The position numbers were made by a program, and so were the translations under genes. From assembly GCA_047651235.1 (NCBI GenBank), contig CP178758.1, positions 3,120,001 to 3,152,000 of the forward strand: 32,000 nucleotides of DNA. Reading direction: 5' to 3'. Source of the DNA: Candidatus Electrothrix yaqonensis. Its GTDB lineage: Bacteria; Desulfobacterota; Desulfobulbia; Desulfobulbales; Desulfobulbaceae. The notes under the pieces were generated by a model. That model was not told the origin of the DNA. It saw only the letters and a program-made list of their open reading frames with translations, and made no database searches. Positions 14,739 through 32,000 of this stretch are shown piece after piece; position 1 is the stretch's first letter, and the number at the start of each line of letters is the position of its first letter.

Positions 14739-14776
14739 CGTGTATTGCCTCCGTGAATATGGTATCTTGAATACGC

Positions 14777-15085
14777 TCAAGATACCGTCCGGTAATGGTT
14801 ACGCAGGATACGGTCAAGCATCTGTTGCTTCTCTTCCTGGGTCAGGATGACCATTTTTTTGCCGGCCATGATCTGCTGTTGCCGCAAATCCTCCTCAGCG
14901 GAGCGGGCACGGGCGTTCACATCGCCGACTTTTCCGGCGGATTTTGTGATCGCTGTTCCGGTCAAACCGGCAGCCACCACGACACCCAGTGCAGCTGCTG
15001 CCCGCCGGAGAAAGCCCCGCCTGTCGGCAATCACCTCATTCTGCCCTTTGTGCGTACTCACACGCATCATGTGCTCTTCAGCCAT
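14777..15085 (-). CDS. Small protein with a twin-arginine signal/anchor and no recognisable cofactor domain
   Basis: 102 aa with a strong SD (AAGGAGGccgttATG). DRRGFLRRAAAALGVVVAAGLTG is followed by a charged helical tail. It is the first gene of the operon. Confidence 0.6.
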   Translation of the reverse strand: MAEEHMMRVSTHKGQNEVIADRRGFLRRAAAALGVVVAAGLTGTAITKSAGKVGDVNARARSAEEDLRQQQIMAGKKMVILTQEEKQQMLDRILRNHYRTVS

Positions 15086-15688: not shown

Positions 15689-16927
15689 ATGAAATCGCCC
15701 TTTCTGCAGATACCGGCTGCAGGTATTTTTTGCCTTATCCTTACTCTCCTCACATCAGCAGCATCCGCTGCCTGCCCTTCCCCTTTCAGCAAACTTATCC
15801 GGAACGGCGGCTATGGTGTCAGTGACAGGAAGGGCAGGATAATTGCCGCCTGCAATCCTGATACCCCCTATGTTCCTGCAAGCCTGTTCAAAATTTCCAC
15901 TGCTCTGGCCGCCCAGTCCATCCTCGGCCCGGATTACCGGTTTACAACGGAATTCTATACAGACAGTGAGGACAACCTGTTTATTAAAGGCTGGGGAGAT
16001 CCCATGCTGGTTTCTGAAGAAATTCAGCTGATCTTTGCTGCCCTGAAAACACACGGGGTACAGCGGATCAACGGGATTTTTGCTGATCCCTCCAATTTTG
16101 CCTTGGAGCATCGGACGCCGGGCCGGGAGGACAGCCACAATCCCTATGATGCGCCGGTCGGGGCAGTTTCGGTGAATTTTAACACGGTTGCTGTCCGGAT
16201 CACGAAAAAAGGCGGGATCGTTTCCGGGGAAAAGCAGACCCCGATGCTGCCGATCATGCGCGAGCTTGCCAAGGGGTATGGCGCCGGATGGCACAGGATC
16301 AACATCTGCCGGGAAAAATGCAATGAGGAGGAACGGATAACTGAATATACAACCGAGCTGTTCCGGGCCCTGCAGAAAGATGCCTGCATTCCGGGAAAAG
16401 GAAAGACCGGGGTTGCCCAGGTACCCTCCGGGGCCAAGCTCGTCTACACGCATCAGAGCAGCAAAACGCTGCATGAGCTGGTGGTCTCTTTTTTGAAGCA
16501 TTCCTCAAATTTTATCGCCAATCTGGTCTATCTGACCTGCGGCGCCAAAAAATTCGGTTATCCCGCCACCTGGGCCAAGGCTGAACAGGCAGTGAATGCA
16601 GTGCTTGTTGAGCAGCTCGGTAAAAAGACTGCTGCCGCCTTTGTCCAGAAAGAAGGCGCCGGGTTGTATCGGGGCAACTGGGTTACGGTCAGGGCAATGC
16701 TGGAGCTGCTCAGGGTGTTCCGACCCTATGCCTCCCTGATGCGCAGACGTCGTGGCGTGCGCACCAAGTCCGGCACTATGAAGGGAATTTATAATTATGC
16801 CGGATACCTTGACAACGGCAATGCCTATGTTATCCTGCTGAATCAGAAACGCAATCAGCGCAGGGCAGTACTTGATCTGCTGAAGAAAGGGCGTTACGGA
16901 AAAAGGAGGAAAAATAAAAAGAAATAA
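15689..16927 (+). CDS. Serine-type D-Ala-D-Ala carboxypeptidase/endopeptidase (PBP4/S13-like)
   Basis: Signal peptide present. SxxK appears in PASLFKISTALAA, SxN in HSSNFIAN, and a KTG-like motif in TKSGTMKG. Basic C-terminal tail. Confidence 0.75.
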   Translation: MKSPFLQIPAAGIFCLILTLLTSAASAACPSPFSKLIRNGGYGVSDRKGRIIAACNPDTPYVPASLFKISTALAAQSILGPDYRFTTEFYTDSEDNLFIKGWGDPMLVSEEIQLIFAALKTHGVQRINGIFADPSNFALEHRTPGREDSHNPYDAPVGAVSVNFNTVAVRITKKGGIVSGEKQTPMLPIMRELAKGYGAGWHRINICREKCNEEERITEYTTELFRALQKDACIPGKGKTGVAQVPSGAKLVYTHQSSKTLHELVVSFLKHSSNFIANLVYLTCGAKKFGYPATWAKAEQAVNAVLVEQLGKKTAAAFVQKEGAGLYRGNWVTVRAMLELLRVFRPYASLMRRRRGVRTKSGTMKGIYNYAGYLDNGNAYVILLNQKRNQRRAVLDLLKKGRYGKRRKNKKK

Positions 16928-18740: not shown

Positions 18741-19418
18741 GTGCTCTCCGATTCTTTGGAGGAAATCTACCGGCGCCTGCTGGAGCATTTCGGGCCGCAG
18801 CACTGGTGGCCCGGTGATACTCCGTTTGAGATTATGGTGGGGGCGATTTTGACCCAGAACACCAACTGGCAGAATGTGGAAAAGGCCATCAGCAATTTGA
18901 AGGCGACAGGTGTGCTGTCGTTTCCGGCCATATCTGCCCTTGACCGGGAAGAACTGGCTGAATACATCCGTCCGGCAGGATATTATAATATTAAAGCAGG
19001 CCGGTTGCAGAACCTGTTTTCCATGATTGAGGAACAGTGGAGCGGTGATGTGGATGCTCTGCTTGGGCAGTCTGCTGCCGTGCTGCGGGAACAGCTGCTT
19101 TCGGTCAAGGGGATCGGGCCGGAGACGGCGGATTCAATTATTCTTTATGCAGCTGAACAGCCGGTTTTTGTGGTGGATGCCTATACCCACCGCATCCTGC
19201 TGCGCCACGAACTGATTTCTGAAGACTGCGATTATCACCAGATGCAGGAGCTGTTTATGGATAATCTGGCTGAAGATACCGCCTTATTCAACGAATACCA
19301 TGCTCTGCTCGTGCAGGTCGGCAAGCGTTTCTGCAGGAAATCCAAACCGCAGTGCAGGGCGTGCCCGCTGGCCGGAGTTAACGATATAAACCTAATGACA
19401 GAGGTTATCCCGGACTGA
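18741..19418 (+). CDS. Endonuclease III-related HhH-GPD family protein
   Basis: 225 aa with a GTG start. Contains [16 protein letters not shown] and the HhH segment [19 protein letters not shown]-terminal [13 protein letters not shown] carries only three Cys. Confidence 0.8.
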
Positions 19419-22400
19419 CCGGTTGAACAGCCTGTTCACTGGGGTGGCCCTGTTTCTTCTTTCTGTCAGTCCGCTGCATGTCAATATACCGGGAAATAAC
19501 GGTGAACATCTCCTGCTCGTTCAGCGGCTTGCCGATATGTGCATTCATACCGGCTTCCCGGCTTTTTTTCTGATCCGAGGTCATGACATTGGCGGTCAGG
19601 GCGATGACAGGCAGGTTTTTATGCTGCGGCATTCTGCGGAGTTCCCGGCAGGCCGTGTATCCGTCCATAACCGGCATCTGAATATCCATGAGTACGCAGT
19701 CAAAGGTTTCAGTCTGCAGGATCTCCAGGGCTTCGGCCCCGTTGCTCGCCACGGTGACAGTAATCCCTTTGCGGCCCAGCAGAATTCTGGCCAGCTCCTG
19801 ATTCAGGGCATTGTCTTCTGCCAGCAACACCTTGGCGCCCTGCAGATCGAAAAATTCTTCCTGCATTTTTTCCCCCTCCCGCTCCTCCGGTTCACTGTCA
19901 CAGGCGGCAAAGGGCAGAGTAAAATAAAATCGGGATCCCTGCCCCACTTCGCTCTCGAACCAGATTGCGCCGCCCATCATCTCAACGAGCTTTTTACTGA
20001 TGGACAGTCCCAGGCCGGTACCGCCGAACCGTCTGGTCGTGGAACTGTCTGCCTGACTGAAGGACTTGAACAGTTTACTCTGTTGTTTCGGGGTCATGCC
20101 GATCCCGGTGTCAGCAACACAGAATTCCAGCATAACGGTACTGTTCCGCCGGTCGCGTTGTTCAACAGTGATGGTCACCCCGCCCTGACCGGTAAACTTG
20201 ACGGCGTTGTTGCCCAAGTTGATCAGCACCTGCCCCAGACGCAGGGGATCGCCCTGCAGCCGGTCCGGAATATCAGCCGCAATATCAACATCCAGCTTCA
20301 GCCCCTTTTCCGAGACCTTCAGATCGATCATATCGATACAGTTCTCAAAGACTTTGGTCAGACGGAACGGAACTGTCTCGATCTCCAGTTTTCCTGCCTC
20401 GATCTTGGAAAAATCAAGAATATCATTGATGATACCGAGCAGAGACTCTGCGGAAATATACACTTTTTCGATATAGTTCCTCTGTTCTTCATCCAGATCG
20501 GTTTCCAGCGTCAGGCTGGACATGCCGAGAATGGCGTTCATCGGGGTGCGAATTTCATGGCTCATATTAGCCAGAAATTCGGATTTGGCTTCACTGGCTG
20601 CCTCTGCCCGCTGCTGAGCCTCGGCCAGTTTTACAGTAATGTATTCATATTCAGTGATATCTTCGAGAATACCGTTGACGGCAAGCAGCCTGCCTGAGCT
20701 GTCCCGAACCGGATGCGAGGAAACCCTGATGGTCCGCAGTTCGCCGTCCGGGTGGAAGAACTGCATGTCATGCTGAACAGAATCGGCTTTACCGTCCTGT
20801 ATTCTGGAAAGGTGAAAACGCGCCTGATCCAGGGATTCCGGAACCCAGTCAATGATTCTGCTCCATGCTATCCCCTTGCCTTTGTGCAGTACTTCCTGGG
20901 CGCAGCCGAAGACAGAGGTCATGCTGTTACTTGCATAGGTCCATTCTTCAGCATCCGGCTTCTGGCTGAACACAACAAACTTGTCGCCGATACTCTCAAC
21001 AAGCTGCTGATATTTCTCCCGGCTTTCTTTCAGCAGGGCTTCTTTTCTCTTGCTCTCAGTAATATCACGGACCAGCTGCAGCACGGAACAGCCGGTGTCG
21101 CTCTCTGTACATCTTGTTGCGGTAATCTCAAAAAATCGTCTGCTGCCCCCTGCAGGAAGAGAGCAGACCGACTTTGCCTCTTTCAGGGCGGTGTTCACAT
21201 GCGGGCAGTACCACGGACTCTGCTCGCCATCAGCCAGAAGGGTGCAATTTTTTTCTGTCATGTCCCCGAACCAGTCGATCATTACCTGATTCATGTAGCG
21301 CACCGTATGATCGTCATCAATAATGATCAGCCCTTCGCCGAGCCGGGCAAGGGCGTCAATAATGGCCGAGGATCGGGCCAGAAAGGCTCTGAGTTCGCTG
21401 TTCACCTTTTTCAGCTCAGTGACTCTGGCATTGAGTTCAGCTGTCCGTTCCCGGACCTGCTGTTCCGCCTTGGCCAGTTTCCAAGCACCGAAGGCAATGA
21501 GCAGCAGCAGGACTGCACAGGCTCTGGTGATCTTTCTGCGGACAGCATATATGATTTCACTGATCACTCCGCTGTTTACACGAGAAACGACCTTCCAGAA
21601 GTACTCATCTGTTTTCTGCGGAACAGAACCGGATCTGCCGGATTCTTCAATCTGCAGCTCCTCCAGCGGCTGCACGGTGCTCCAGACCCATAAACCGTCC
21701 CGGTTGAGCAGAGACCCCTTCTGCCGCTGCCCGATTTCCTGCCAAACTGCCGGGAAACGCGCTTGCAGACGCAGCTCCTGCCGGTTGAACATGAAACCCC
21801 ACTCGTCCTCATGATCAGGGCTGAGCAGCCAGTATCCTTTGCTGTTCAGCACGGAAATACGGTCTCCGGCAGCAGCAGTGGCTGCCTGAAAATTGTCCAC
21901 CATGTTGCGGGCGGAATAATTCAGGATCAGAATACCGAGCCGGTTGCCCTGTCGGTCGCTCAGCGGAGTGGCAATGCGGATTGTCGGCTTCAGGGGCTGT
22001 TCGATTTTGCTGTGCTCGATATTGAGATCCAGGGGTGAGATAAAAATCTCTCCAGGCGCCAGAGCAGCCGCTTCGGTAAAATAATACCTTCCCTGTTTAT
22101 TCTGCAGTTCCTCCGGCGGGATGATTCTCGGCCGGTCCGGCGAATAATCCACCCGTACCCGCTCCATACCGGCGCTATCCAGCCAGCGCACCTGATCATA
22201 TATCCCTTTACTATCTGAAAAAACAACAAAGTCCTCGGCAAGATGCTGCAGATTCGCGCTGTCCGGCCTGCGTATCCGGTCAATCAGCTCATGCTGACCT
22301 GCCAGGTAAAGCAGATCCCTGCAGATGTTCTTCAGGGTATAAGACAATGTGCCCGCCCCCTGACCGACATACAGGGTTTCCCGCGTTATCAGGTGGTTTA

Positions 22401-22503
22401 TCTCGTTTTTTATTTCCTGGCGGCCGTACCACCAGGCACCTACCAGCAGCAAAACGAGAGCGGGAACCATGCGTTTCAGAAACAGGGCGTATTGAATCCG
22501 CAT
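19405..22503 (-). CDS. Hybrid sensor histidine kinase/response regulator (2 TM, Cache-like periplasmic domain, PAS domains, HisKA, HATPase_c, REC)
   Basis: H-box [21 protein letters not shown]-boxes DTGIGM and [21 protein letters not shown] domain [12 protein letters not shown]...[15 protein letters not shown]-terminal TM, about 290 aa, then a second TM. Confidence 0.9.
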
Positions 22504-22713
22504 AATTCACTTTTTCCGTATCCTGTTTACACCGTTGAACAACGATATGACTATGTCATGGTTTCATCTTTCCCGTCAATATAAAATTTCCCTCCTTTTT
22601 GCAGTACCGGAGAAAACCGGCATACAGACTGCTTCAAAGGTCAGGTCAACGCAGGGACTTCTTGTTCATGTCTTCGGGAAATTAGCTGCCGCAATGCTGA
22701 TGCTGACACCGGC

Positions 22714-22738
22714 TTTCAACTCCTAATTCGCATTGATA
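22714..22738. repeat. 25-nt dispersed repeat, copy 2
   Basis: tttcaactcctaattcgcattgata is the exact reverse complement of 1970-1994. Confidence 0.85.
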
Positions 22739-22763
22739 GGCAGTTTCCTCTGTCTAATTATTG

Positions 22764-22777
22764 ACTGATGTTACGCA
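22764..22777. repeat. Third copy of the 14-mer actgatgttacgca (TIR core of the 6193-6292 element)
   Basis: Exact 14/14 match, and 15/16 match to the TIR. No inverted partner is seen nearby. Confidence 0.8.
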
Positions 22778-22829
22778 TTCGGCCCACTTATAGTATGCTG
22801 GAGGCATGAATACAAAATATCTTGATCTC

Positions 22830-22948
22830 TATAGCTGGAGCAGTATAAACTGAATACAGGATCAGCTATCTGAAAGGCGTGAAGGCAAAACTTATGCCTC
22901 TTGTGGGCATATTCAAATTATGTTGCTCCAGCTATAATTTCAGTTTAT
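22830..22948. repeat. Interleaved inverted-repeat pairs in an AT-rich intergenic stretch
   Basis: A is tatagctggagca (22830-22842) and A' is tgctccagctata (22924-22936). B is ataaactgaa (22845-22854) and B' is ttcagtttat (22939-22948). The order is A-B...A'-B', which is not a simple hairpin. Confidence 0.75.
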
Positions 22949-23114
22949 TTCAGAATATTCCAACCCGATCTGCTCTGTCGGACAGCCTTCAGGGCAGACA
23001 GGGCAATCGCATGTCTATAACTTGACCTCCCGACTGACAGGTGAGCTGTCAGGCTCCGCCTGTTCCTGCGTTGTATCGGCTGCAGAAAGACTCTTGCACG
23101 ACTGTTATTTCCCC

Positions 23115-23143
23115 TTGCCGCCTGCCCGGTTCTTCAGTAGAAT
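23115..23143 (+). promoter_or_regulatory. Candidate sigma70 promoter of the Hsp70 operon
   Basis: TTGCCG (23115-23120), 17-nt spacer, TAGAAT (23138-23143). Confidence 0.4.
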
Positions 23144-23164
23144 AATTTCACCGTGTTACCATAA

Positions 23165-23197
23165 ATACTGTATCAGTACTGTATCAATACTGTCTCC
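23165..23197 (+). promoter_or_regulatory. Three tandem 11-bp direct repeats (candidate operator) just downstream of the putative promoter
   Basis: atactgtatca / gtactgtatca / atactgtctcc, with exact 11-bp (one helical turn) phasing. Confidence 0.5.
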
Positions 23198-23279
23198 TTG
23201 ACTTCATGCGGGTTTCCTGCTCCCCTGCACCGGTCTCTGCCCGGAAAAGGATACCCTGCGCATCGGTAACTGTTTGGTT

Positions 23280-25622
23280 ATGAAAAAATCAATAGGCATT
23301 GATCTCGGCACCACTAACTCTGTTGCTGCGATAAAGAAGGTCAGTACAGAAGTCCTGAAAAATGCAGAGGGCGAATATATTACGCCGTCCTGCGTGACTG
23401 TGAAAAAACGCCTGATGCGCAAACCGGAATTCATTGTCGGGCGCAATGCACTGGAATGGATACACCAGGAACCGGGAGATACCATAACTGCGGTCAAGCG
23501 TCTTATCGGGCGGAATTTTCATGACAAAGAGGTGCAGGAGCTGATCACTGAGCATGGCGTACATTACCGGCTTGCATCCCATTCACAGGGTTCGGCGAAC
23601 AGCCTCGCCATTCTGGCCGGAGGAAAAGAGTTCACCCCGGAAGAGATTTCGGCAAAAATTCTGACCAAGATAAAGGCGGATGCGGAAGCTGCTCTCGGCG
23701 ACCGGGTGGATACCGCCGTGATCACTGTTCCTGCCTATTTCAATGATAAACAGAAGCATGCCACCAGAACAGCCGCTGCCTTGGCTGGCCTGAAAGTACG
23801 CCGTCTGCTGCCTGAACCCACGGCTGCAGCTATTTCCTTCGGAGTGGACAGAATCTCTGGTCATGACGGTCGGACCGTGCTGGTTTTTGACTTCGGCGGC
23901 GGAACCCTTGACCTGTCCATTCTGACCATCAGCGGCGGACGGATCATTGAGATGGGCAAAGGCGGCGATATGTGGCTGGGCGGAGAGGACATTGATGCCC
24001 TTATTATTGATTATGTGCTGGAGAAAACCGCAGAGAAGGAACGGATTGCTGATATCGGCGCCTTTCTTGACCGGCAGAAAAAAGCACAGAAAATCAGGTT
24101 TCTCTCTGCGCTGAAAACTGCGGCGGAAAAGACTAAAATTATTCTGAGCAACAGCAGGGAAACCTGTATCGAGGTCCTCGGTCTTCTGCTGGATGATGAT
24201 GGCGATGCCCTAGACATTGAGGTTGACCTGACCCGCGCCCGGTTTGACGCGATGATGCAGCCCATGCTGCATTCCATGCTGGAGCTTGTCCGGGGCCTGC
24301 TTGCTGATGTCCACTTTACCGAAGACCTGATCGACAATATTCTGCTTGTGGGCGGCAGTGCGCGCATTCCCTGTGTTATCAAAGCACTGCAGGGGGAATT
24401 CGGCACAGATCGGGTTCTGCTGCATGAACGGCCCATGCTTGCTGTGGCCGAAGGGGCCGCCATCCTCAGTCATCGCCTTGCCGATACCCTGGAATGTCCG
24501 CAATGCGGTCAGAATGCGGCGCAGCAGGATGCGGTCTGTCCCCATTGCGGCTTTGATCTTGACAGCTATACTGTTGAGCAGGGCGTTGTTGAAATTGTCC
24601 ACACGGCTGCGCATGATTATTTTATCCGGCTGGAAAATAACCGGCGTTTTCTGATGATCGAGAAAAATACGCCCTTGCCCTGCTCCTGCACCGAGGTCTT
24701 TCAGCTTGTTGATGCGGCGCAGCAGCTGGTACATATGAAGTTCTCCAATATGGTCAACGGGCAGGAGCAGAGTATCGGCGATCTCTGGCTCGGCATTGAT
24801 CGGAACGACCGGGAGAAAAGCCCCGGCAGGGAAACAGCGGCGGAAAAGGCGCAGGTCTCCCCGGAACCTGCACGTCTTGCTGTTACCTTGGATATTGATG
24901 AGAATAACCTGGTTTCCGTCAATGCGGCCTTGGTTGATCAGTCTGAGATTGCGGTTTCAAGGACGTTGTCCCGGGGAAAAGCGGACGAAAAACTCTTTCT
25001 TGCCCTTGAACAGGCAATCAGCGATGCTGACAGACGGCAGTACTCGGCCTATACGGTGATTGACCTGCTGAACCGGACCCGCTCCATTATTACAGCAATC
25101 AACCGTGTTGTGCATCCGGTGACCGGCGTGGTGCATGAAGCACGGTATGAAGAGGCGCAGGGCATGATCCGCAAGGCGGTGCAGATTGCGGAGAATGAAG
25201 AGGCGCCGCTGACCCAGATATACTATGCGGAAAGTATGCTGGAGGATTACGGCATGCTGATCGCCCCGGAAATACAGGAAACTCTGCAGGAAAGAATCGC
25301 CGCCCTGCGCCAGGCGGACAGCCACGGTTCCTACGGGGAAACAATGCAGGCCTCCGAGGCTCTTGCCGAGGCCCTGGATGACGACGGACTGGCTTTGGTC
25401 AATACCTTGGTGCAGATCGAGAATGCCGGAGAAATCTGTTATGCCGATGATCCCGGCAAGGCAAAACGGTTTCTCCGGGTTGTTTCAGACGTTCTGAAAG
25501 CGGCCGAAAAAGGTGATCCCTCTGTGGAGGACAAGGTGAATGCAATCATGCCGGAGGTGGATGAAGTGCTGGACAGATACGCCAGAAGTACGCAGAAGAT
25601 CCACAGAGATATCCGCAGATAA
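23280..25622 (+). CDS. Atypical Hsp70 family ATPase with a zinc ribbon inserted between NBD and SBD and a divergent helical C-terminus
   Basis: NBD motifs IGIDLGTTNS, DFGGGTLD and LVGGSARIP. Zinc ribbon CPQCGQNAAQQDAVCPHCG. SBD-beta-like NTPLPCSCTEVF...LAVTLDIDENNLVSVNA. The ATG at 23280 is preferred over the tracked TTG at 23274. Confidence 0.85.
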   Translation: MKKSIGIDLGTTNSVAAIKKVSTEVLKNAEGEYITPSCVTVKKRLMRKPEFIVGRNALEWIHQEPGDTITAVKRLIGRNFHDKEVQELITEHGVHYRLASHSQGSANSLAILAGGKEFTPEEISAKILTKIKADAEAALGDRVDTAVITVPAYFNDKQKHATRTAAALAGLKVRRLLPEPTAAAISFGVDRISGHDGRTVLVFDFGGGTLDLSILTISGGRIIEMGKGGDMWLGGEDIDALIIDYVLEKTAEKERIADIGAFLDRQKKAQKIRFLSALKTAAEKTKIILSNSRETCIEVLGLLLDDDGDALDIEVDLTRARFDAMMQPMLHSMLELVRGLLADVHFTEDLIDNILLVGGSARIPCVIKALQGEFGTDRVLLHERPMLAVAEGAAILSHRLADTLECPQCGQNAAQQDAVCPHCGFDLDSYTVEQGVVEIVHTAAHDYFIRLENNRRFLMIEKNTPLPCSCTEVFQLVDAAQQLVHMKFSNMVNGQEQSIGDLWLGIDRNDREKSPGRETAAEKAQVSPEPARLAVTLDIDENNLVSVNAALVDQSEIAVSRTLSRGKADEKLFLALEQAISDADRRQYSAYTVIDLLNRTRSIITAINRVVHPVTGVVHEARYEEAQGMIRKAVQIAENEEAPLTQIYYAESMLEDYGMLIAPEIQETLQERIAALRQADSHGSYGETMQASEALAEALDDDGLALVNTLVQIENAGEICYADDPGKAKRFLRVVSDVLKAAEKGDPSVEDKVNAIMPEVDEVLDRYARSTQKIHRDIRR

Positions 25623-26776
25623 TGCGCACAGGGAACGCCTGCCCGGTCTGCAGTCTGCAGGGACTGCCGCCCGACATTGAAAAATGCCCCCAGTGTGATG
25701 CGGATCTGACCTGTTTTCAGGCTCTGGATACCCTAGCTGAACACAACAGTGCCGACAGAGCTGACAACGCCGAGGCTGCGGAACAGAAATCTTCATCAGA
25801 CAACCGCGCTGCCGTTTTTCTGCTTCTGTTGCTGCTGGTCCTGCTTTCTCTCCTGTTCCTCTTTTTTTTCTTCAGGACAAGCAATCGTGTTCTGATGCTG
25901 GATCAGCAGGTAACTGCATTGAAGGCTGAAATGCAGACGGCAAAGCAGGCGGACAGGAAGCAGAACCCGGAACAGAACAAAGCTGCGGCAATATGTGCGC
26001 TCCCGGTGCAGCAGCCCAAGGCAAAGGAAAAAGAAGAGTGGGAGAAAGATCCCGACGCTGAGCACAAAGAACAAAATCAGGAAACAAAGGAGGAAGCGCA
26101 GGCCGATGGAGTTGCTGCGGTAACCTCCTCCGGGGACAGGCTGCGGAAAGGCCGAGCTGGAAACGTGCAGCAAAGAGAACAAAGCAGTAGAATAAACGTG
26201 ATAACCATTGTAAACGTTGCCGAACCTGCAGCAAAAGTTACAATCGCAAAGAGTACGGTAGAAGAACCGGCAACCCTGCAGGCACAGAAGGTTGTAAAAA
26301 CAGCAGAACCGGACTTATCGGATCTGCCGGAATCCAAAGCAGGCAGCGGGGCAAGCGGAAAGCCGACAGCAGCGCTGCCTGTCCTGCAGCCGCCCCCGGC
26401 CCGGCGATGGCCGGACAGTACCTTTTTATATCAGACCGGGCAGGGTGATACGGTATGGGGGATTGCCGAGCATTTTTACGGGGACGGCAGATACTATCCC
26501 GTGATTATGGAGCAGAATCCGGACCTTGTGATCAGCAGAGTCAGCAAGGAACAGATTCTCCGGCTGTTGAGCGACCGGAGCGCGCTGCGGAACTTTTATG
26601 CCCGCCGGATAGAACGGCGGGACGGTCTGCTGGTCTGGAAGCATGAGATACTTGCTGGTGAGACCCGGCAATCCATTCAGGCCCGTTTTGCACCGCCCGG
26701 TTCTTCCGGCAGAGTTTTCTATGCGCAAAATCCAGCGATTGTTCCCGGCAGAATAGTGAGGATTATTCTCCAGTAG
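25622..26776 (+). CDS. Zinc-ribbon / single-TM / coiled-coil / low-complexity / tandem LysM-like envelope protein
   Basis: The start overlaps the Hsp70 stop (TAATG). Contains CPVCS...CPQCD, TM helix AVFLLLLLLVLLSLLFLFFFF, and a K/E/Q-rich spacer. LysM-like segments are GDTVWGIAEHFYGDGRYYPVIMEQNPDL and AGETRQSIQARF...YAQNPAIVPGRIVRI. Confidence 0.7.
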   Translation: MRTGNACPVCSLQGLPPDIEKCPQCDADLTCFQALDTLAEHNSADRADNAEAAEQKSSSDNRAAVFLLLLLLVLLSLLFLFFFFRTSNRVLMLDQQVTALKAEMQTAKQADRKQNPEQNKAAAICALPVQQPKAKEKEEWEKDPDAEHKEQNQETKEEAQADGVAAVTSSGDRLRKGRAGNVQQREQSSRINVITIVNVAEPAAKVTIAKSTVEEPATLQAQKVVKTAEPDLSDLPESKAGSGASGKPTAALPVLQPPPARRWPDSTFLYQTGQGDTVWGIAEHFYGDGRYYPVIMEQNPDLVISRVSKEQILRLLSDRSALRNFYARRIERRDGLLVWKHEILAGETRQSIQARFAPPGSSGRVFYAQNPAIVPGRIVRIILQ

Positions 26777-26875
26777 CAGGAGGTACCTGACAGGTACTGC
26801 CGTACTCTGCCTGTTTTTTCGTATTTTCAGCCAACTTCCGGGAGACAAGAGGGAGACAGAGAAGAGCAGGAGCCT

Positions 26876-27742
26876 ATGCAGGAAACCAGTCAGCAAGAGA
26901 TAAATAAAAAGATAACCGAATACTACAGGGCGCTTACCCCGGCCTATGAAAAGTACTCTGTGCAGTCGAACAATATTCACTACGGCTACTGGGAGAAAAC
27001 CGCCCGGACAAAATCGCACAGGGAAGCTCTGGAGCACATGAACGCCTTTGTGGCAAAAGCTGCTCAGGTACAGGCCGGAGACAGGGTGCTTGACGCAGGC
27101 TGCGGCATGGGCGGCAGTTCAGTCTGGCTGGCAAAGATATTCGGCTGCCGAGTGACCGGCATAACGCTCTGCAGTGAACATATTCCCCTTGCGGAACGCT
27201 TTGCCCGTGAACATAAGGTGGAGCATCTGGTGCAGTTTTTCTGTAGAGACTTTGCCGACACCGGTTTTGAGTCAGCATCGTTTGATCTGGTCTGGGTCCT
27301 GGAAAGCTGCTGTTACGCTGCCGATAAACGGGATTTCATCGCAGAGTCGGCCCGATTGCTGCAATCCGGAGGGCGTCTGATTGTTGCGGACGGCTTTCTG
27401 CAGAAAACAGCGCTTTCTGCAGAAGAACAGAAAATGTTAGATTGCTGGATGCACGGCTGGGCAGTACCGAATGTCATAAGTCCGGACCAGTTCGGCCGAC
27501 ACCTTGAAGACTGCGGATTTGAACATATAACTTTTTCTGATATAACAAAAAATATCATGATGACTTCGCTGTGGATGCACCGGTTTGCCAAGCTGATCTA
27601 TCCGGCAGCGCGCATTATGGTCAAGCTCGGTTTCTGGCCTGAGCAGAAAAAAGGACACTGGCAGGCGGCGTTGAAACAATTCCATCTCTTTGCGGATCAT
27701 ATCGGTTGCTATGGCCTTTTTCAGGCGCGCAAAATCGGCTGA
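26876..27742 (+). CDS. Class I SAM-dependent methyltransferase
   Basis: Motif I VLDAGCGMGGSS, then IHYGYWE and LLQSGGRLIVAD. Substrate unknown. Confidence 0.85.
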   Translation: MQETSQQEINKKITEYYRALTPAYEKYSVQSNNIHYGYWEKTARTKSHREALEHMNAFVAKAAQVQAGDRVLDAGCGMGGSSVWLAKIFGCRVTGITLCSEHIPLAERFAREHKVEHLVQFFCRDFADTGFESASFDLVWVLESCCYAADKRDFIAESARLLQSGGRLIVADGFLQKTALSAEEQKMLDCWMHGWAVPNVISPDQFGRHLEDCGFEHITFSDITKNIMMTSLWMHRFAKLIYPAARIMVKLGFWPEQKKGHWQAALKQFHLFADHIGCYGLFQARKIG

Positions 27743-29420
27743 GAGCTGTCCTCCGCAGCATAAGGAGCACGGGTCACGTTCTCCGGCAGAGCTGTATGAT
27801 GCGGGCTTTGCCCTGGCGCAGGCAGGCAGGTTGGCGGAGTGTCTGCATTGCTGGCACCGGATACCGTCGTATGCGCCTGAGTTTGTTGCCCAGAAAAACA
27901 CGCTGGCTGCTCTGCTGATCCGGAAATGGGCGGACCGGCTCGTTCAGGAGGGAGATCCACTGGAACAGGTTGAGGAAATCCGACAGCAGCTTGATGCCCT
28001 GACAGACTTTGCGCTTGATCCTGTGCAGATAACGGGCCGGGATGAACTGGTCAGCTGCTGCCAGTCTCTGCATCTGGTCCGGCTCTGGCAGGAGGGACGG
28101 AACCGGGAAATTCTGCAGACAGCAGCCGGACAGGAACTGCTACATCCCACAGTGCTGGAAATCCGGGCCAAGGCAGCCTATCAGGTCCTAGCAGCCTACG
28201 GGGCACAGACATTACCGGCTGAGGTACGGCAGTTCATTGACTGCTGGCTCTCAGCCCTGTTCCATCCCGCAGTTCTTCGGACCTTACCGGGCGGCAAGGG
28301 TGAGATGGGGGAGAAGGAAGAGCAGCGGCAGAAACTGCTTGCTCTCGGCAGGAACATGGTCTGCCGATATGCCGGGCAGCAGCAGGCAGACAGCGGTAAG
28401 CAGTTTACCCGGCAGTGGGAAGAGGAGCTTGCCCTGCTTGAAATATTGCAGAGTGCAGCCTTGCCTCCGGAAGCTGAGCAGACGCTCCCTGTACCTTCTG
28501 TATATACCCCGGCCTTGGCCTGGCAGACAGGAACAGCCGATAAGCTCTGTGCCATAGTACGAAGCTGTCAGGAAAAATTCGCAGACAATGAACAGTATCT
28601 GGCAGTAGGGGCAGCCTATTCATTAGCCGGTCCTGCGCTCCTCATGGTGCGAAGCGGCCAATATGACGAAGCGGCTGCTGAACTTATTCAGCTGGATAAC
28701 CTGCCGGAAAAAGAAAGCCCGGATTCGTTTATTTTTATTGCTTACGGACTGGTCAGAGCGGCTCTGGACAGCGGGTGCCATTATCTGGATGTCGGCAGGC
28801 ATCAGGAGGCGGAAAAAATATTACTTTTTGTTCTTCCGCTGGTCCCCGATTTTCCCTCTCTTCAAGAGCAGCTGCTCGCAATGCTTGCCGAAGAAGATGC
28901 ATACGATGATGCCGACAGGGTGGCAGTGGCCGTCAATTGTCTGACAGAACTGCACAGGACAGCCGTCTCGGATGAAATCAGCAGAGCACTCAGTTCCGTC
29001 CTGACCAGACAGGTGATTCTGCAGCACAGTGCAGGCGCGACACCCGGCGATGTGCTGCTCCAAACCATAAAAAAGGCTGTTGAGCTGAACCCTGAGGATG
29101 CCTTTGCCCGCATGACCCTTGACGATATCAGGGCGGACCTGGAAATAGCTGAAATGCGGCAGGCCGTGATTGACGGCAAACTGGCGCGGGCCGCCGGGAT
29201 CGCAGAAAAAAGCAGGTATCCGCAGGTAAACGAACAGTTTTTTCACTTTGCCGCTCAGGTGGTTGAGCAGATTGCAGCAGGAGATTACCCTGATCCGGAG
29301 ACAGCCGTGCTGCTGCTCCGGCAGCTTCTGGAACATGTTCTGCAGCTCAACCCTGCGCATGCGGTAGTGCAGGAGGTCGAGTGTCTCCTGTATGACCTGG
29401 AAGATCAACTGGAGTTCTGA
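27690..29420 (+). CDS. Large all-helical TPR-like repeat protein (start uncertain: ATG at 27690 or 27711, both overlapping the methyltransferase gene)
   Basis: 576-aa ORF with TPR-like segments (AELYDAGFALAQAGRLAECL, SGQYDEAAAEL, VGRHQEAEKIL, AVELNPEDAFA). No catalytic motif recognised. Confidence 0.65.
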   Translation: MRIISVAMAFFRRAKSAESCPPQHKEHGSRSPAELYDAGFALAQAGRLAECLHCWHRIPSYAPEFVAQKNTLAALLIRKWADRLVQEGDPLEQVEEIRQQLDALTDFALDPVQITGRDELVSCCQSLHLVRLWQEGRNREILQTAAGQELLHPTVLEIRAKAAYQVLAAYGAQTLPAEVRQFIDCWLSALFHPAVLRTLPGGKGEMGEKEEQRQKLLALGRNMVCRYAGQQQADSGKQFTRQWEEELALLEILQSAALPPEAEQTLPVPSVYTPALAWQTGTADKLCAIVRSCQEKFADNEQYLAVGAAYSLAGPALLMVRSGQYDEAAAELIQLDNLPEKESPDSFIFIAYGLVRAALDSGCHYLDVGRHQEAEKILLFVLPLVPDFPSLQEQLLAMLAEEDAYDDADRVAVAVNCLTELHRTAVSDEISRALSSVLTRQVILQHSAGATPGDVLLQTIKKAVELNPEDAFARMTLDDIRADLEIAEMRQAVIDGKLARAAGIAEKSRYPQVNEQFFHFAAQVVEQIAAGDYPDPETAVLLLRQLLEHVLQLNPAHAVVQEVECLLYDLEDQLEF

Positions 29421-29704
29421 TGAATCCCTATAAACTGCTCAACGTTACCCCGGAGGCCACACCGCAGGATATTGTCCGGGCCTCTGTCCTGGCCCTGCAG
29501 GAGCGGCAGCATGCTGCCCGTGATATTGCCAAGGCCCGCAAACAGCTGATGAATCCGGCAACCAAGTTGATTCTTGACTTTGTCTATTCTGTTGACTCCG
29601 AGCCGTTTATCCGGGAGGCGATCGAAAAACTTACAGCCGGAGAAGAAGAGGTACCGAAGATTGAAGATATGGAGCGGCTTGATATTTTCGCCTGTCAGGC
29701 ATGA
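29420..29704 (+). CDS. Small J-domain-like protein lacking the HPD motif
   Basis: TGATG overlap with the upstream gene. NPYKLLNVTPEATPQDIVRA...DIAKARKQLMNP mimics J-domain helices I-III, but the HPD loop is absent. Confidence 0.5.
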   Translation: MNPYKLLNVTPEATPQDIVRASVLALQERQHAARDIAKARKQLMNPATKLILDFVYSVDSEPFIREAIEKLTAGEEEVPKIEDMERLDIFACQA

Positions 29705-30177
29705 AGAGAAAAGAAGATAAACAGCTGGTTGCCCCGGACGCGCTGGTGCGGGAAAGGCTGGTCGCTTTTCAGCGGGAAATCGCTGAGCTCAGGCGGAACA
29801 GCCGGGAACAGGAAGAGGCATTCCGCAGCCGGGAACAGGATTTACTGCTCAGTCTTTTTGAGGTGCTGGATGCCTTTGACAATGTGGAAAGAAATCTCCA
29901 AGGCAAAGAGGAGCTCCTCGGAAAAACCGGACGCCGTCTGCTGAACAATACCCGCGCTATCAACCGGAAACTGCTGCGTCTGCTCCGATCCCGCCAGATT
30001 GAACCGCTGGACCTGCAGGACAGCAAAGCCCGGATGGAGCAGTGCCGGGTTGTTGCCACCCGGCCCGATCCGGAACGGGAGAATGCAGAAATTATCCTAG
30101 TTGAAAAAAAAGGTTATGTCGATACAGCGCAGAATCAGGTGCTCCGCAAGGCCGAGGTGGTGACAGTACGGAACTGA
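29701..30177 (+). CDS. GrpE-like nucleotide exchange factor
   Basis: ATGA overlap with the upstream gene. The coiled-coil N-terminus is followed by LFEVLDAFDNVERNL (GrpE LPVIDSLDRAL block). The C-terminal beta domain is ILVEKKGYVDTAQNQVLRKAEVVTV (GrpE KGY..G..lR.A.V.V block). Confidence 0.75.
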   Translation: MKRKEDKQLVAPDALVRERLVAFQREIAELRRNSREQEEAFRSREQDLLLSLFEVLDAFDNVERNLQGKEELLGKTGRRLLNNTRAINRKLLRLLRSRQIEPLDLQDSKARMEQCRVVATRPDPERENAEIILVEKKGYVDTAQNQVLRKAEVVTVRN

Positions 30178-30290
30178 TTATCGCAGGTTCCGCTGCCAGT
30201 ACCCGCCCCGGGAAGTAAGGATCAGCCTGCTTTTTTCACTTTCTCTGTTCAGCCTGCTGCTGCCCGCTCACTCAGATGAACCGCGAGCTT

Positions 30291-30557
30291 TTATCGAACC
30301 ATTTTGGTTAACTTTATATAAATAATCTTCTTCTTTCCTCCCTCACAGCTTCCCACAATCTTCCCCTGAGTAACGATGCCTTGTTCCACTTCCCAAGTAT
30401 AGACAATATCCAGTATATATGATTTCACTCCTGCGGCATTGATCTTCTCGGCGATCTCTGCTTTAAGTTCTTCACAGGACTTTATTGCAGCATATACCTG
30501 ACCGCTCCCCAAAAGCACCATTAACAATCCAACAACAAAACTCTTCATAACACTCAT
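30291..30557 (-). CDS. Small secreted protein, DUF1161-like
   Basis: Signal peptide present. The pattern C-x2-LKAEI..KI...GV..Y.L.IV......G.IVGSCEGG.KKI.Y is typical of DUF1161. SD GGGGGA lies 7 nt upstream. Confidence 0.65.
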   Translation of the reverse strand: MSVMKSFVVGLLMVLLGSGQVYAAIKSCEELKAEIAEKINAAGVKSYILDIVYTWEVEQGIVTQGKIVGSCEGGKKKIIYIKLTKMVR

Positions 30558-30647
30558 AACAGTATCCCCCTTTTATTTTTTGTAAAAATGCTGACGCAGT
30601 CGGCGAAGACACCTCTGTCCCCTGCCCGCTACCTTCTTTAATTTCAA

Positions 30648-31148
30648 TCAAATACACCGGTCAGAACCTGCAGCTTCCCGGAGCCACTGTTCAACTTGGA
30701 TCGGCAAGGGCTGTCTGCCTGCACTTTTTACTGTGCCGTTGATCATCAACGCCGGGGTCATAGTGACACCGGCCCGCCCGATTTCATCCGGATCATAAAT
30801 CTGTTCGATATCAGCAGCCAGCTGCAGCCGGTCAAGGATATCAAGAATAAGGGTCTGCAGACTGCTGCAGCTGACGCAGCCGGTCCCGAAAATACGGATA
30901 ACCAGGGCTGTGTCCTCCTGCGGTTCTGCACCGCAGTGCCTGCGGTACACCTCCAGCAGGGCCTGCCGGTATTTTTCCTCGCTGCCGGAAGGTATATAGT
31001 TATCTCTGCTGATTTCCGTAAAAAGAAAATGTACAGCCTCCTGCTCATCAACCTGCTGCCGGGCAATACTGTTCAGAGCAGTATCCAGACCGAGGAGACC
31101 GATACTGACCTTGCCGATACGTATAAACCGTGGAGCTGCCGCGTCCAT
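30648..31148 (-). CDS. Thioredoxin-fold protein (MTH895/redox-active disulfide protein 2-like C-terminal domain) with an unknown N-terminal domain
   Basis: IRIFGTGCVSCSSL...TMTPALMINGTVKSAGRQP matches the small CxxC thioredoxin_3-type fold. The N-terminal 80 aa are unassigned. Confidence 0.65.
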   Translation of the reverse strand: MDAAAPRFIRIGKVSIGLLGLDTALNSIARQQVDEQEAVHFLFTEISRDNYIPSGSEEKYRQALLEVYRRHCGAEPQEDTALVIRIFGTGCVSCSSLQTLILDILDRLQLAADIEQIYDPDEIGRAGVTMTPALMINGTVKSAGRQPLPIQVEQWLREAAGSDRCI

Positions 31149-31169
31149 ATTTTTTCTCTGCCTGTCCAG

Positions 31170-31853
31170 TTAACCGTTGATCACGGCAAGCATCCGGTTA
31201 ATAACCTCATCTACAGCCAGCTGCGATGAATCAATCAGCACGGCGTCTTCGGCTATGATCAGCGGGGCAATCGTGCGTTCCCGATCATTCCGGTCCCGTG
31301 CAATAATCTGAGCCAGAATCTCCTGTTCATCTACCTGCTCTCCCCGTTTGCGTAACTGCCCGACCCGGCGGCGGCACCGCTCTTCCGGGGAGGCATCCAG
31401 ATAAAATTTCCAGGCCGCATCAGGAAAGACAACCGTGCCGGTGTCCCGGCCGTCCGCAACCAGCTGCCCGGCCTGCCCCATTTCCTGCTGCATTGCGGTC
31501 AGGCGGGCCCGCACTGCCGGAACCGCTGAAACCGCAGAGGCAGCCATGCTCATTTCCGGGCTGCGGATAGCCGCGCTGATATCCTCTCCGGCCAGCAGCA
31601 CCCGCACATCCAGCCCGGTCTCCACAGGGGGGAGCAGTCGGAGAGCAAGTTTTTCCAGCAGCAGAGCCAGAGCATCTTGCTGATCGGCACTTTCCGCCCT
31701 GATCCCGGCTTGAGCGCAGGCATAGGCCACAGCCCGGTACATAGCACCGGTATCCAGATAGGTATAGCCCAGTGCATCGGCCAGTCTGCGGCTGACCGTG
31801 GATTTGCCCACTCCGGACGGGCCGTCAATGGTGACCACCTCCAATTTTGCCAC
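31170..31853 (-). CDS. cmk: Cytidylate kinase
   Basis: Contains VVTIDGPSGVGKSTVSRRLADALGYTYLDTGAMYRAV. The start is placed at GTG 31853, after the hisC stop at 31888. The tracked ATG at 31934 would overlap hisC by 47 nt. Confidence 0.85.
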   Translation of the reverse strand: MAKLEVVTIDGPSGVGKSTVSRRLADALGYTYLDTGAMYRAVAYACAQAGIRAESADQQDALALLLEKLALRLLPPVETGLDVRVLLAGEDISAAIRSPEMSMAASAVSAVPAVRARLTAMQQEMGQAGQLVADGRDTGTVVFPDAAWKFYLDASPEERCRRRVGQLRKRGEQVDEQEILAQIIARDRNDRERTIAPLIIAEDAVLIDSSQLAVDEVINRMLAVING

Positions 31854-31887
31854 AGCCTTTCCCTGCTGCTCAGATTGCTCAAACTGT

Positions 31888-32000
31888 TTAGACACAACCC
31901 AGCTCCTGCAGACAGGTAGCCAGTGCAATAACAAAACGCTGGTTCTCTTCCTGCGTTCCCACGGTGATACGGATAAAATTCGGATAACCGTACGCCTTCA
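31888..32000 (-). CDS. hisC: Histidinol-phosphate aminotransferase, C-terminal 36 codons (partial at window edge)
   Basis: The minus frame reads KAYGYPNFIRITVGTQEENQRFVIALATCLQELGCV*. The FIRITVGT.EEN ending is characteristic of HisC. Confidence 0.6.
   Translation of the reverse strand, partial: KAYGYPNFIRITVGTQEENQRFVIALATCLQELGCV

Follow-up and report, generated by a model that had tools for sequence, protein, structure and literature searches.

Among described systems, the gene cassette analyzed here comes closest to the HSP70/GrpE/DnaJ-or-TPR arms of the GAP1-N2 GTPase-centric conflict systems (Kaur, Burroughs, Iyer, Aravind 2020, eLife; PMC7159879). The core of these systems consists of a GAP1 protein and one or two TRAFAC GTPases. 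According to the proposal of that article, assembly close to the membrane and cell wall is threshold-dependent and controlled by HSP70, GrpE and DnaJ/TPR-fused proteins. The cassette likewise combines an HSP70 with a dedicated GrpE and a DnaJ- or TPR-bearing partner, and it also contains zinc ribbons, transmembrane (TM) segments and putative peptidoglycan-binding domains which point to a placement at the membrane or wall. In contrast, it is devoid of GAP1, a TRAFAC GTPase, an FNIII-repeat protein and vWA, and its J module lacks the HPD tripeptide. GAP1 and TRAFAC GTPases were absent from the five conserved families and the window neighbours examined; a GAP1 protein was found only beside one distant relative of this Hsp70, locus L084. 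The GAP1-N2 systems occur mainly in Actinobacteria and Firmicutes, whereas the cassette is found mainly in Desulfobacterota.

The presequence translocase motor of mitochondria consists of mtHsp70/Ssc1, Tim44, Pam18, Pam16 and Mge1, and Pam16 works with the genuine HPD J-protein Pam18. By functional analogy, the cassette resembles this motor in its predicted membrane-tethered Hsp70, its dedicated GrpE-family factor and a J-like subunit which, like Pam16, lacks HPD. However, it encodes no Pam18-type HPD J-protein, no translocon is evident, and its anchor is unrelated to Tim44; homology is limited to Hsp70, GrpE and the J fold. The polar landmark proteins FimV and HubP combine LysM, a TM segment and cytoplasmic TPRs and are, to our knowledge, not coupled to an Hsp70 cycle. 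Peptidoglycan-binding LysM outside and TPRs inside are predicted for the cassette as well, and the anchor of one distant locus (L085) itself bears TPRs. Unlike FimV/HubP, the cassette anchor would have the opposite polarity with its N-terminal zinc ribbon inside, and the parts are distributed over two proteins.

An adjacent TPR solenoid and J-fold, apparently fused in L089 and L090, are reminiscent of the eukaryotic TPR-J co-chaperones DNAJC3/P58IPK and DNAJC7. Similarly, a conserved motif at the position of EEVD in Hsp70 recalls the EEVD-TPR docking of Hop, CHIP and TOM70. The differences are the J-fold without HPD and the basic character of the motif (phi-x-R-D-phi), which is a candidate docking site only. 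In E. coli, HscB and the membrane-anchored DjlC carry functional HPD J-domains; the lids of HscA and HscC are short, and neither protein is known to use GrpE. The cassette shares with HscA-HscB and HscC-DjlC/DjlB (mentioned in PMC13580251) an Hsp70 paralogue encoded beside its own co-chaperone; unlike the cassette, these systems have no TPR or LysM partner. A literature search found no description of the five-gene cassette.

Gene Organization and Conservation of the Cassette

The window, i.e. the whole stretch of 32,000 nucleotides of Candidatus Electrothrix yaqonensis (YB6) DNA that was analyzed, contains six co-directional open reading frames on the + strand within positions 23274–30177. They lie at 23274/23280–25622, 25622–26776, 26876–27742, 27690/27711–29420, 29420–29704 and 29701–30177. 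Direct reading of the sequence showed the overlaps TAATG 25620–25624, TGATG 29418–29422 and ATGA 29701–29704 and a gap of 99 nt in front of the third frame. This confirmed the six frames and the coupling overlaps described in an initial annotation made from the same sequence.

The cassette is rare. It was found in about 90 of 185,579 species genomes, mostly of Desulfobacterota, and among 1.84 billion proteins 163 cluster representatives were obtained. For comparison a set of 82 related loci was used. Downstream sequence of 5.5 kb or more was available for 46 related loci; tblastn detected all four partner genes of the Hsp70 gene in 36 of these, and in all 36 they were collinear; ORF clustering added the small J-like gene in five more loci. 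Only five gene families were common to the loci. By this comparison the conserved cassette consists of the genes for Hsp70, a membrane anchor, a TPR solenoid, an HPD-less J-fold protein and GrpE. The initial annotation had seen here a private, non-canonical Hsp70 set with a GrpE, an HPD-less J-like protein, a Zn-ribbon/TM/LysM partner and a TPR protein, and the comparison supports this set and its conservation as a block, without the methyltransferase discussed below.

Amino acid identity amounts to 38–75% for Hsp70 (median 54%), 21–49% for the TPR protein, 25–61% for the anchor and 29–69% for the J-like protein. Among distant loci, L083, L087 and L088 show the same gene order as the window, while the order in L085 and L086 is permuted to TPR-small-GrpE-Hsp70-anchor. 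L089 and L090 contain four genes, and in both the helical protein ends with a J-like segment; probably the J-like module is fused to that protein in some distant clades. GrpE was lost in L007 and L013, and most of the cassette in L011 and L082.

Hsp70 and Membrane Anchor

The first gene (23280–25622, + strand) encodes a long-tailed Hsp70 of 780 amino acids counted from ATG, or 782 from the TTG at 23274. The protein is composed of a nucleotide-binding domain (NBD), a Zn-ribbon insertion, a divergent SBD-beta, a lid, an extra helical tail of about 125 amino acids and the C-terminus ...KIHRDIRR with the conserved basic motif at the EEVD position. The NBD matched PF00012 with a Pfam E value of 2.9e-98. 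In 83 sequences (66 core members and 17 distant relatives) residues D8, T11, K70, E171, D194, G196–198, T199, D201 and G342 (DnaK numbering) are invariant, and the protein is predicted to be ATPase-competent. The acidic hairpin 206–217 is deleted or neutralized, N170 is replaced by P and D393 by H. As judged from these positions, the surface for canonical J-domain docking is deleted or changed. The SBD is too divergent for detection by single-sequence search; for SBD-beta and lid, a family profile matched more than 25 Hsp70 SBD chains in register, including mortalin, DnaK and Hsc70 (best E value 8e-4).

The zinc ribbon (24486–24557, + strand; amino acids 405–428) is inserted after the NBD, ahead of the interdomain linker, and matched Zn_ribbon_3 with 27.9 bits versus a Pfam cut-off of 27. 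All four cysteines are invariant in alignment A1, and the ribbon is restricted to some clades. Its spacing is CxxC-x10-CxxC; the ribbon itself had been recognized before, with a spacing of x13 which was not correct. The DVLLLD linker is absent; in its place are the zinc ribbon and, after it, an I-V-H segment.

The start codon of the anchor gene (25622–26776, + strand) overlaps the Hsp70 stop codon (TAATG). The anchor consists of an N-terminal zinc ribbon (approximately 25637–25708, + strand), a conserved CFxxLDxL motif, a single TM helix (approximately 25808–25873, + strand; amino acids ~63–84), a coiled coil, a low-complexity spacer and two LysM-like repeats (approximately 26414–26773, + strand). 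The TM/coiled-coil region is FtsL-like in similarity. In the predicted topology the N-terminal ribbon would be cytoplasmic and the coiled coil and LysM periplasmic. The LysM-like motifs proposed earlier gave no Pfam match in the window protein and only a weak NCBIfam match (E value 8e-6), but orthologues exceed the Pfam cut-off of 20.9 bits for PF01476 (40.4 bits over two stretches for L074, 22.3 for L047 and 21.6 for L003). The family HMM recovered the anchor in distant clades. In those examined, zinc ribbon and TM helix are kept, in L090 with the ribbon seen only after upstream extension of the ORF, and several of these clades have no LysM on the anchor. Since LysM and the Hsp70 ribbon are each missing in some distant clades, neither can be essential to the core mechanism.

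TPR Protein, J-Like Protein and GrpE

The third conserved gene (27711–29420, + strand) encodes an all-alpha TPR-type solenoid of 569 amino acids according to the NCBI annotation. In YB6 the protein is N-terminally truncated compared to the family norm of about 685 amino acids. Its AF2 model (pLDDT 84.3) found almost exclusively TPR or TPR-like helical-repeat proteins among the best 50 Foldseek matches, with a probability of ~1. TOM70 and P58IPK were among them, with a likeness at the level of the repeat fold alone (TM 0.2). Thus, the TPR-like nature proposed by the initial annotation holds for the solenoid fold, although there is no significant Pfam TPR match in the YB6 protein. In orthologues of full length, Pfam TPR_2 and TPR_19 exceed their cut-offs solely towards the N-terminus, and it is this TPR-positive part that was lost in YB6, which explains the missing match.

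The start of the J-like gene (29420–29704, + strand; 94 amino acids) overlaps the TPR stop codon (TGATG). The AF2 model of the protein has a pLDDT of 85.9, and nearly all of its best 50 Foldseek PDB matches are J-domains (probability ~1 for the top-ranked). Alignment to the J-domain with hhalign resulted in a probability of 83% and a P value of 8.8e-6, with the HPD loop deleted. Structure model and hhalign both indicate the J fold with helices I–IV and the helix II/III hairpin, and the C-terminus carries a conserved LxxLxIFD-type motif. The protein remained below the Pfam PF00226 cut-off (13.5 versus 27.8 bits). The HPD tripeptide between helices II and III is needed for the stimulation of the Hsp70 ATPase by J-domains. 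It is absent, and the loop deleted, in every one of the 30 members aligned and likewise in all distant homologues. Consequently, the protein is a J-like and not a J-domain protein, as already proposed. The cassette had also been described as a complete Hsp70 cycle. This goes too far, since the cassette has no gene for an HPD J-domain and the J-docking surface of the Hsp70 is remodelled.

The last gene (29701–30177, + strand) overlaps the J-like stop codon (ATGA) and encodes a short GrpE-family nucleotide exchange factor of 158 amino acids. The previously suspected GrpE identity is supported by 45.7 bits for PF01025 (Pfam cut-off 25.8) over profile positions 33–163 of 165. The protein scored below every NCBIfam housekeeping GrpE equivalog cut-off. 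It is conserved in 54 loci and present in distant clades. Altogether, Pfam and NCBIfam models, family profiles and structure searches upheld nearly every domain assignment made before.

Proposed Function of the Cassette

On balance, the five genes probably form a self-contained specialized Hsp70 module that is held at the cytoplasmic membrane, on its inner face, and in this clade also attached to peptidoglycan. The anchor would recruit Hsp70 to fixed envelope sites via its ribbon and/or the CFxxLDxL segment. The TPR solenoid and the J-fold protein, whose genes are translationally coupled in YB6 and in some distant clades apparently fused, would behave as one adaptor which docks on Hsp70. The contact may be made by the conserved C-terminal phi-x-R-D-phi motif of Hsp70 or, on the side of the J-like protein, by its LxxLxIFD tail. 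Because HPD is lacking, this adaptor would position or gate Hsp70 rather than fire ATP hydrolysis in the manner of DnaJ, and GrpE would reset the cycle. The output may be ATP-driven holding, remodelling or assembly of an envelope client encoded outside the cassette, or of the anchor itself. No effector, client or enzyme is conserved across the cassette loci. Within marine Electrothrix, and likewise within Electronema, the synteny of the cassette is stable, as would fit an accessory function that is kept by vertical inheritance.

Two other functions were considered, both of them unlikely. The locus might be an NTPase-centred conflict or defence module akin to the GAP1-N2 GTPase systems, with the GTPase lost or supplied in trans. 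Its parts list is shared with these systems (PMC7159879), and about 4.5 kb upstream of L084 there are a GAP1-N2/M/C protein and an HSP70-vWA fusion. A patchy and rare distribution, the fast evolution of TPR protein, anchor and J-like protein compared to Hsp70 and variable flanks, some with defence or mobile genes (type III CRISPR RAMPs in L001, MazEF and a retron-type RT in L002, an integrase in L085, MmeI and AAA_15/21 in Electrothrix), are also in line with conflict. However, the conserved block contains no GTPase, GAP1 or recognizable effector, none of its five proteins matched PADLOC-DB 2.0, and no defence cassette built on an Hsp70 was found in the literature search. Moreover, many cassettes are located amid housekeeping genes, as in the window (PFK, endonuclease III-like, Cmk) and in L087–L089; Hsp70 identity broadly tracks taxonomy, and the synteny within genera is stable. 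A similarly small chance is given to trans-envelope signalling. Here, the LysM/coiled-coil ectodomain would report the cell-wall state through chaperone titration, with Hsp70 binding and release at the cytoplasmic ribbon of the anchor in analogy to BiP-Ire1 or DnaK-sigma32, and the TPR protein would relay the signal to partners such as neighbouring two-component systems. The anchor resembles bitopic sensors and anti-sigma factors in its predicted layout of cytoplasmic zinc module, TM helix and periplasmic ligand-binding domain. Histidine kinases or response regulators adjoin the cassette in about 12 loci, including a divergently transcribed hybrid kinase in the window; in all Electronema loci examined, an RR-HK pair of the same direction directly precedes the cassette. 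A Ser/Thr kinase follows the permuted cassette of L085, and an operator-like repeat is private to YB6. Against signalling, the cassette has no conserved output domain of DNA-binding, sigma-factor or enzymatic type, several clades lack LysM, and the kinase neighbours vary in type, side and orientation and belong to genes very common in these genomes. The divergent sensor kinase noted in the initial annotation is not a conserved neighbour.

A six-gene machine with the SAM methyltransferase as integral part, as first annotated, is very improbable. In YB6 the class I methyltransferase gene (26876–27742, + strand; Pfam Methyltransf_11, E value 6.6e-19) is co-directional with the cassette, starts 99 nt after the anchor gene and runs 32 nt into the TPR gene, and its SAM motif is intact. 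However, no homologue was found in any of the 82 related loci, every other cable bacterium included, and a family-wide role in the cassette was rejected for this reason. The gene occupies exactly the place of the lost N-terminal ~180 amino acids of the ancestral TPR protein. By sequence comparison it is a strain-specific later insertion in YB6, outside the conserved machine; in PADLOC-DB 2.0 it alone matched, to a generic MTase model. Even less credible is a housekeeping DnaK/GrpE pair with odd decorations. According to published reports, 98.9% of bacteria have dnaK, and derivatives of DnaK occur alongside the canonical set (PMC11019930, PMC13580251). Among the NCBIfam models the NBD is closest to DnaK, and GrpE is adjacent. 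Nevertheless, the Hsp70 reached only 332 versus 648 and 325 versus 823 bits for the DnaK equivalogs (NF001413/TIGR02350) with a match that spans essentially just the NBD, and it also remained below the HscA cut-offs. A canonical DnaK (985 bits) is located on the same contig as the distant cassette L089, 6.6 kb away. Housekeeping identity is effectively rejected because of the score below cut-off, the rarity of the cassette and this co-existing DnaK, in accordance with the earlier view that the Hsp70 is not a canonical DnaK.

Upstream Region

The initial annotation described a repeat-rich leader with an operator-like repeat in front of the cassette. Three phased 11-bp direct repeats similar to ATACTGTATC were found at 23161–23196 (+ strand), against 0.7 copies expected by chance in the whole window. 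A search of the 82 related loci did not recover this repeat; apparently it is lineage-specific. Apart from it, the repeats of the leader come down to one 27-nt inverted repeat. Just 5' of the direct repeats, a consensus scan detected a sigma70-like promoter match, TTGCCG-17-TAGAAT (23115–23143, + strand), a match alone which is no proof of function.

Gene Organization and Conservation of the Cassette

Six ORFs on the plus strand span positions 23274–30177 and encode an Hsp70 (23280–25622), a membrane anchor (25622–26776), a methyltransferase (26876–27742), a TPR protein (27711–29420), a J-like protein (29420–29704) and a GrpE (29701–30177). The Hsp70-like protein matches, with 100% identity, an "Hsp70 family protein" encoded on a 3.74-Mb contig of the cable bacterium Candidatus Electrothrix sp. 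YB6. The translational overlaps described in the initial annotation (TAATG at 25620–25624, TGATG at 29418–29422 and ATGA at 29701–29704) were all read in the sequence, and the gap of about 100 nt ahead of the methyltransferase gene measures 99 nt. The GC content of the region is unremarkable. The genes flanking it encode, to one side, phosphofructokinase, an endonuclease III-like protein and a hybrid sensor kinase transcribed divergently and, to the other, DUF1161, a thioredoxin-like protein and cytidylate kinase.

Relatives of the locus were searched in one genome per species, with a profile built on the C-terminal part of the Hsp70. Among 185,579 species 90 relatives were found, and 80 loci were retained. 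The carriers are nearly all Desulfobacterota: every sampled cable-bacterium genome (Electrothrix, Electronema), Desulfocapsaceae, Desulfonema magnum, Desulfobacter latus, Desulfotignum and Desulfatiglandales; the remainder are a small number of MAGs whose labels name other phyla. When the C-terminal profile was run against 1.84 billion cluster representatives, 163 matches were obtained at E ≤ 1e-3, and canonical DnaKs were not reached among them.

All four partner genes were detected by tblastn in 36 of the 46 loci that have 5.5 kb or more of downstream sequence, and all 36 are collinear. The gene for the J-like protein was recovered in five further loci by ORF clustering. All-against-all clustering of the ORFs revealed that only the five cassette families are common to the loci, while the flanks differ. 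The conserved block therefore consists of the Hsp70, anchor, TPR, J-like and GrpE genes, not of the six genes initially proposed.

The distant loci L083, L087 and L088 carry the identical five genes in identical order. In L085 (6058–13233) and L086 the order is permuted to TPR, J-like, GrpE, Hsp70 and anchor, and a Ser/Thr protein kinase containing TPRs comes next; the anchor of this permuted cassette has cytoplasmic TPR repeats, and a tyrosine integrase lies upstream. Two further distant loci, L089 and L090, contain four genes. In both, a J-like segment was seen by eye at the end of the helical protein, and the J-like family HMM matched the L089 protein with an E value of 0.004. The helical protein is likely a fusion of the TPR and J-like proteins. 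The independence from gene order together with the likely fusion supports the cassette as a functional unit and indicates that the TPR and J-like proteins work together as a single adaptor.

Erosion of the cassette was also observed. GrpE is undetectable in two Electronema loci, L007 (Electronema halotolerans) and L013 (Electronema sp. JC); in L013 the J-like ORF also extends to 261 aa. L011 kept the Hsp70 and the anchor alone, and in L082 dnaE directly follows the Hsp70 gene. Cassettes that are nearly identical were also seen in MAGs under the labels Promethearchaeota (L029), Victivallales (L039), Nitrosomonas (L057), Spirochaetaceae (L024, L036, L042) and Elusimicrobia (L063, L079). L029 is a 2.6-kb contig with 0.29x coverage. 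For the short contigs among these, contamination during binning seems a likelier source than transfer.

The Hsp70

Residues 7–402 of the Hsp70 match Pfam HSP70 (E 2.9e-98), and residues 405–428 match Zn_ribbon_3 with 27.9 bits (cut-off 27). The spacing of this ribbon is CxxC-x10-CxxC and not CxxC-x13-CxxC as annotated initially. A search of the PDB with the single sequence matched nucleotide-binding domains (NBDs) only. With a profile of the region following the NBD, more than 25 Hsp70 substrate-binding domains were matched in register, the best being mortalin 423–611 (E 8e-4). A divergent SBD-beta and lid are thus present, the SBD-beta in line with the initial annotation. An extra helical tail of about 125 aa comes after the lid; it terminates in ...IHRDIRR and indeed lacks EEVD. 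Close to this C-terminus (~25596–25619) a phi-x-R-D-phi motif recurs across clades, reading IHRDI in the window and FHRDV, FDRDV or FYRDV in distant clades. As a candidate docking peptide, this motif could bind the TPR protein or the Hsp70 substrate site.

For a survey of functional residues, 66 core and 17 distant family members were aligned with E. coli DnaK, whose numbering is used here. The catalytic and phosphate-binding residues D8, T11, K70, E171, D194, G196–198, T199, D201 and G342 are invariant in all of them, so that the intact ATPase claimed for this protein is borne out at the level of sequence. The family differs from DnaK in a shortened and neutralized hairpin 206–217 and in the exchanges N170 to P, D393 to H and D481 to N; R167 is retained solely in the core clade. 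These sites are J-domain contact positions in the DnaK-DnaJ complex (PDB 5NRO). The pattern fits co-evolution with a partner that has no HPD and argues against ordinary control by a DnaJ. The zinc ribbon is inserted at the junction of NBD and linker, adjoining the J-contact site, and is restricted to some clades. An obligatory pairing of this ribbon with that of the anchor was considered and discarded, because several clades without the Hsp70 ribbon still possess the anchor ribbon.

The window Hsp70 is almost certainly not the housekeeping chaperone. It misses the NCBIfam DnaK equivalog cut-offs (332 versus 648 bits) and belongs to a very rare family. L089 encodes a canonical DnaK (985 bits) 6.6 kb from the cassette Hsp70 (299 bits). 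Furthermore, dnaK is reported to be present in 98.9% of bacteria, and DnaK derivatives reportedly accompany a canonical set (PMC11019930, PMC13580251). Consequently, the housekeeping reading was rejected.

The Partner Proteins

The anchor possesses the N-terminal zinc ribbon (CxxC-x11-CxxC) and the transmembrane segment (a single strongly hydrophobic stretch at about aa 63–84) that had been described for it. The LysM motifs also described are less evident: the window protein shows a weak LysM match besides a weak FtsL-like TM/coiled-coil similarity, and orthologues exceed the Pfam cut-off (40.4 bits over two stretches in L074). Ribbon and transmembrane segment are kept in the distant clades; in L090 an extension of the ORF beyond its called start, in the upstream direction, is needed to reveal the ribbon. 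LysM was dismissed as a core component since the anchors of L087, L089 and L090 lack it.

The TPR protein gave no significant Pfam match. A model built with AF2 from an eight-sequence alignment (pLDDT 84.3, pTM 0.70) is wholly helical, and the best 50 Foldseek matches listed are almost exclusively TPR or TPR-like helical-repeat proteins, TOM70 and P58IPK among them. Model and fold search, within these best 50 matches, agree with the TPR-like assignment made earlier.

The third ORF encodes a generic class I SAM methyltransferase, as annotated. Its placement as an integral member of the unit did not hold, since no homologue was found in the 82 related loci. The closest full-length TPR orthologue, P0402 (742 aa), aligns with the window from its residue 181 onward, at nt 27780, and no trace of a P0402-like N-terminus is left in the window. 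Between 26876 and 27780 the methyltransferase gene has taken the place of about 180 aa at the N-terminus of the ancestral TPR protein; in orthologues, no other part of that protein has Pfam TPR matches. Thus, the methyltransferase occupies the site of a lost TPR-positive N-terminal module. In other marine Electrothrix the same end was truncated independently, even further, and no methyltransferase was acquired.

The J-like protein (94 aa) was matched to the J-domain profile by hhalign with 83% probability, with the HPD loop deleted. Nearly all of the best 50 Foldseek matches of its model (pLDDT 85.9) are J-domains. HPD was found in none of 30 aligned family members and is missing from every homologue examined in distant clades. 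A search of PDB sequences with the small-protein profile yielded coiled-coil noise and two weak J-domain matches only; the assignment consequently rests on hhalign and the fold search, which together favour the J-like fold without HPD that had been suggested. At its C-terminus (~29669–29690) a conserved LxxLxIFD motif is a further candidate docking peptide for the TPR protein or the Hsp70 substrate site. The sixth protein was correctly recognized as GrpE-like, with a Pfam GrpE score of 45.7 bits (cut-off 25.8).

Proposed Function and Alternatives

From sequence and models, the cassette can be described as a conserved autonomous module of a non-canonical, ATPase-competent Hsp70, a dedicated GrpE, a predicted TPR/J-like adaptor and a putative bitopic zinc-ribbon anchor. 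The adaptor cannot work by the HPD mechanism. We propose that the anchor, which bears LysM repeats in the clade of the window, ties the Hsp70 cycle to membrane and cell wall; the adaptor would bind the Hsp70 without firing hydrolysis, and the machine would hold or remodel an envelope-associated client. Confidence in this functional reading is moderate because no output domain is conserved. A more far-reaching version is rather unlikely in our estimation: a previously unrecognized class of bacterial Hsp70 following eukaryote-like rules, in which the tail motif docks in a TPR co-chaperone, the J-like module gates the ATPase instead of firing it, and the zinc-ribbon/LysM anchor fixes the Hsp70 to the wall, so that a cytoplasmic ATP-driven motor is coupled to peptidoglycan.

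The cassette might instead belong with the GAP1-N2 conflict systems as a relative that has no GTPase. A parts list in common with those systems (Kaur et al. 2020, PMC7159879) speaks for this, as does the distant locus L084 (1–13037): here, a GAP1-N2/M/C protein and an HSP70-vWA fusion are encoded ~4.5 kb upstream of a distant Hsp70 relative. L084 is a possible evolutionary link to those systems. PADLOC returned no match for the five conserved proteins, and we consider this origin improbable. Equally improbable is a device for cell-wall signalling that operates by chaperone titration. In L084, the Hsp70 relative is followed by a helical protein of 445 aa and a J-like protein of 64 aa; two Big_2 proteins and one reverse-strand gene separate this group from the GAP1-N2/M/C and HSP70-vWA genes.

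A full-text search of the literature gave no description of the cassette, the nearest being Kaur et al. Each part belongs to a known family. A 2026 review raises the question of what many bacterial DnaK "derivates" do (PMC13580251). The cassette offers a clean case, namely an Hsp70 accompanied by a dedicated exchange factor, adaptor and membrane receptor, and is of real interest to chaperone biology. Strictly conserved ATPase residues, combined with the loss of the J-docking surface and of the partner's HPD, make a J-independent or differently gated Hsp70 cycle testable in bacteria; the system would also be physically tied to peptidoglycan. Experiments are feasible because the cassette is retained in cable bacteria and in the cultured relatives Desulfonema magnum and Desulfobacter latus.

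Neighbourhood and Leader Region

Neighbours at other loci are diverse: some are housekeeping genes, others belong to CRISPR, toxin-antitoxin or restriction-modification systems or encode integrases. Synteny is stable inside marine Electrothrix and inside Electronema, and the genes flanking the YB6 cassette share none with the other cable-bacterium loci. Histidine kinases of differing forms adjoin the cassette in about a dozen loci, which may be chance in kinase-rich genomes. The divergent hybrid kinase of the window is located at 19405–22503; all Electronema loci examined carry a co-directional response-regulator/histidine-kinase hybrid immediately upstream (7184–8248 in L009, with equivalents in L007 and L011–L014). 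Further upstream in the window lies a polysulfide-reductase-like electron-transfer gene trio (11553–14780, minus strand) for a multihaem cytochrome c, an NrfD-type membrane subunit and a 4Fe-4S protein, and a PBP4-type D-Ala-D-Ala carboxypeptidase is encoded at 15689–16927. At other loci, neither the trio nor the carboxypeptidase gene shows linkage to the cassette.

The leader contains a consensus match to a sigma70-like promoter (23115–23143), followed after ~20 bp by three 11-bp phased direct repeats, ATACTGTATC, GTACTGTATC and ATACTGTCTC (23161–23196). The phased operator-like repeat noted previously is therefore present in the window; it was not found in relatives (0 of 82 loci). Its spacing of one helical turn suggests an operator of the response-regulator type. 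Between the kinase and Hsp70 genes, at 22830–22936, a 27-nt inverted repeat with 85% complementarity encloses 53 nt and occurs once in the window. Rfam gave no match on 22000–32000, this element included. It folds into a long hairpin of -43.9 kcal/mol (z = -4.85; none of 200 shuffles folds as well), which could be a small RNA, a terminator/attenuator or a MITE remnant.
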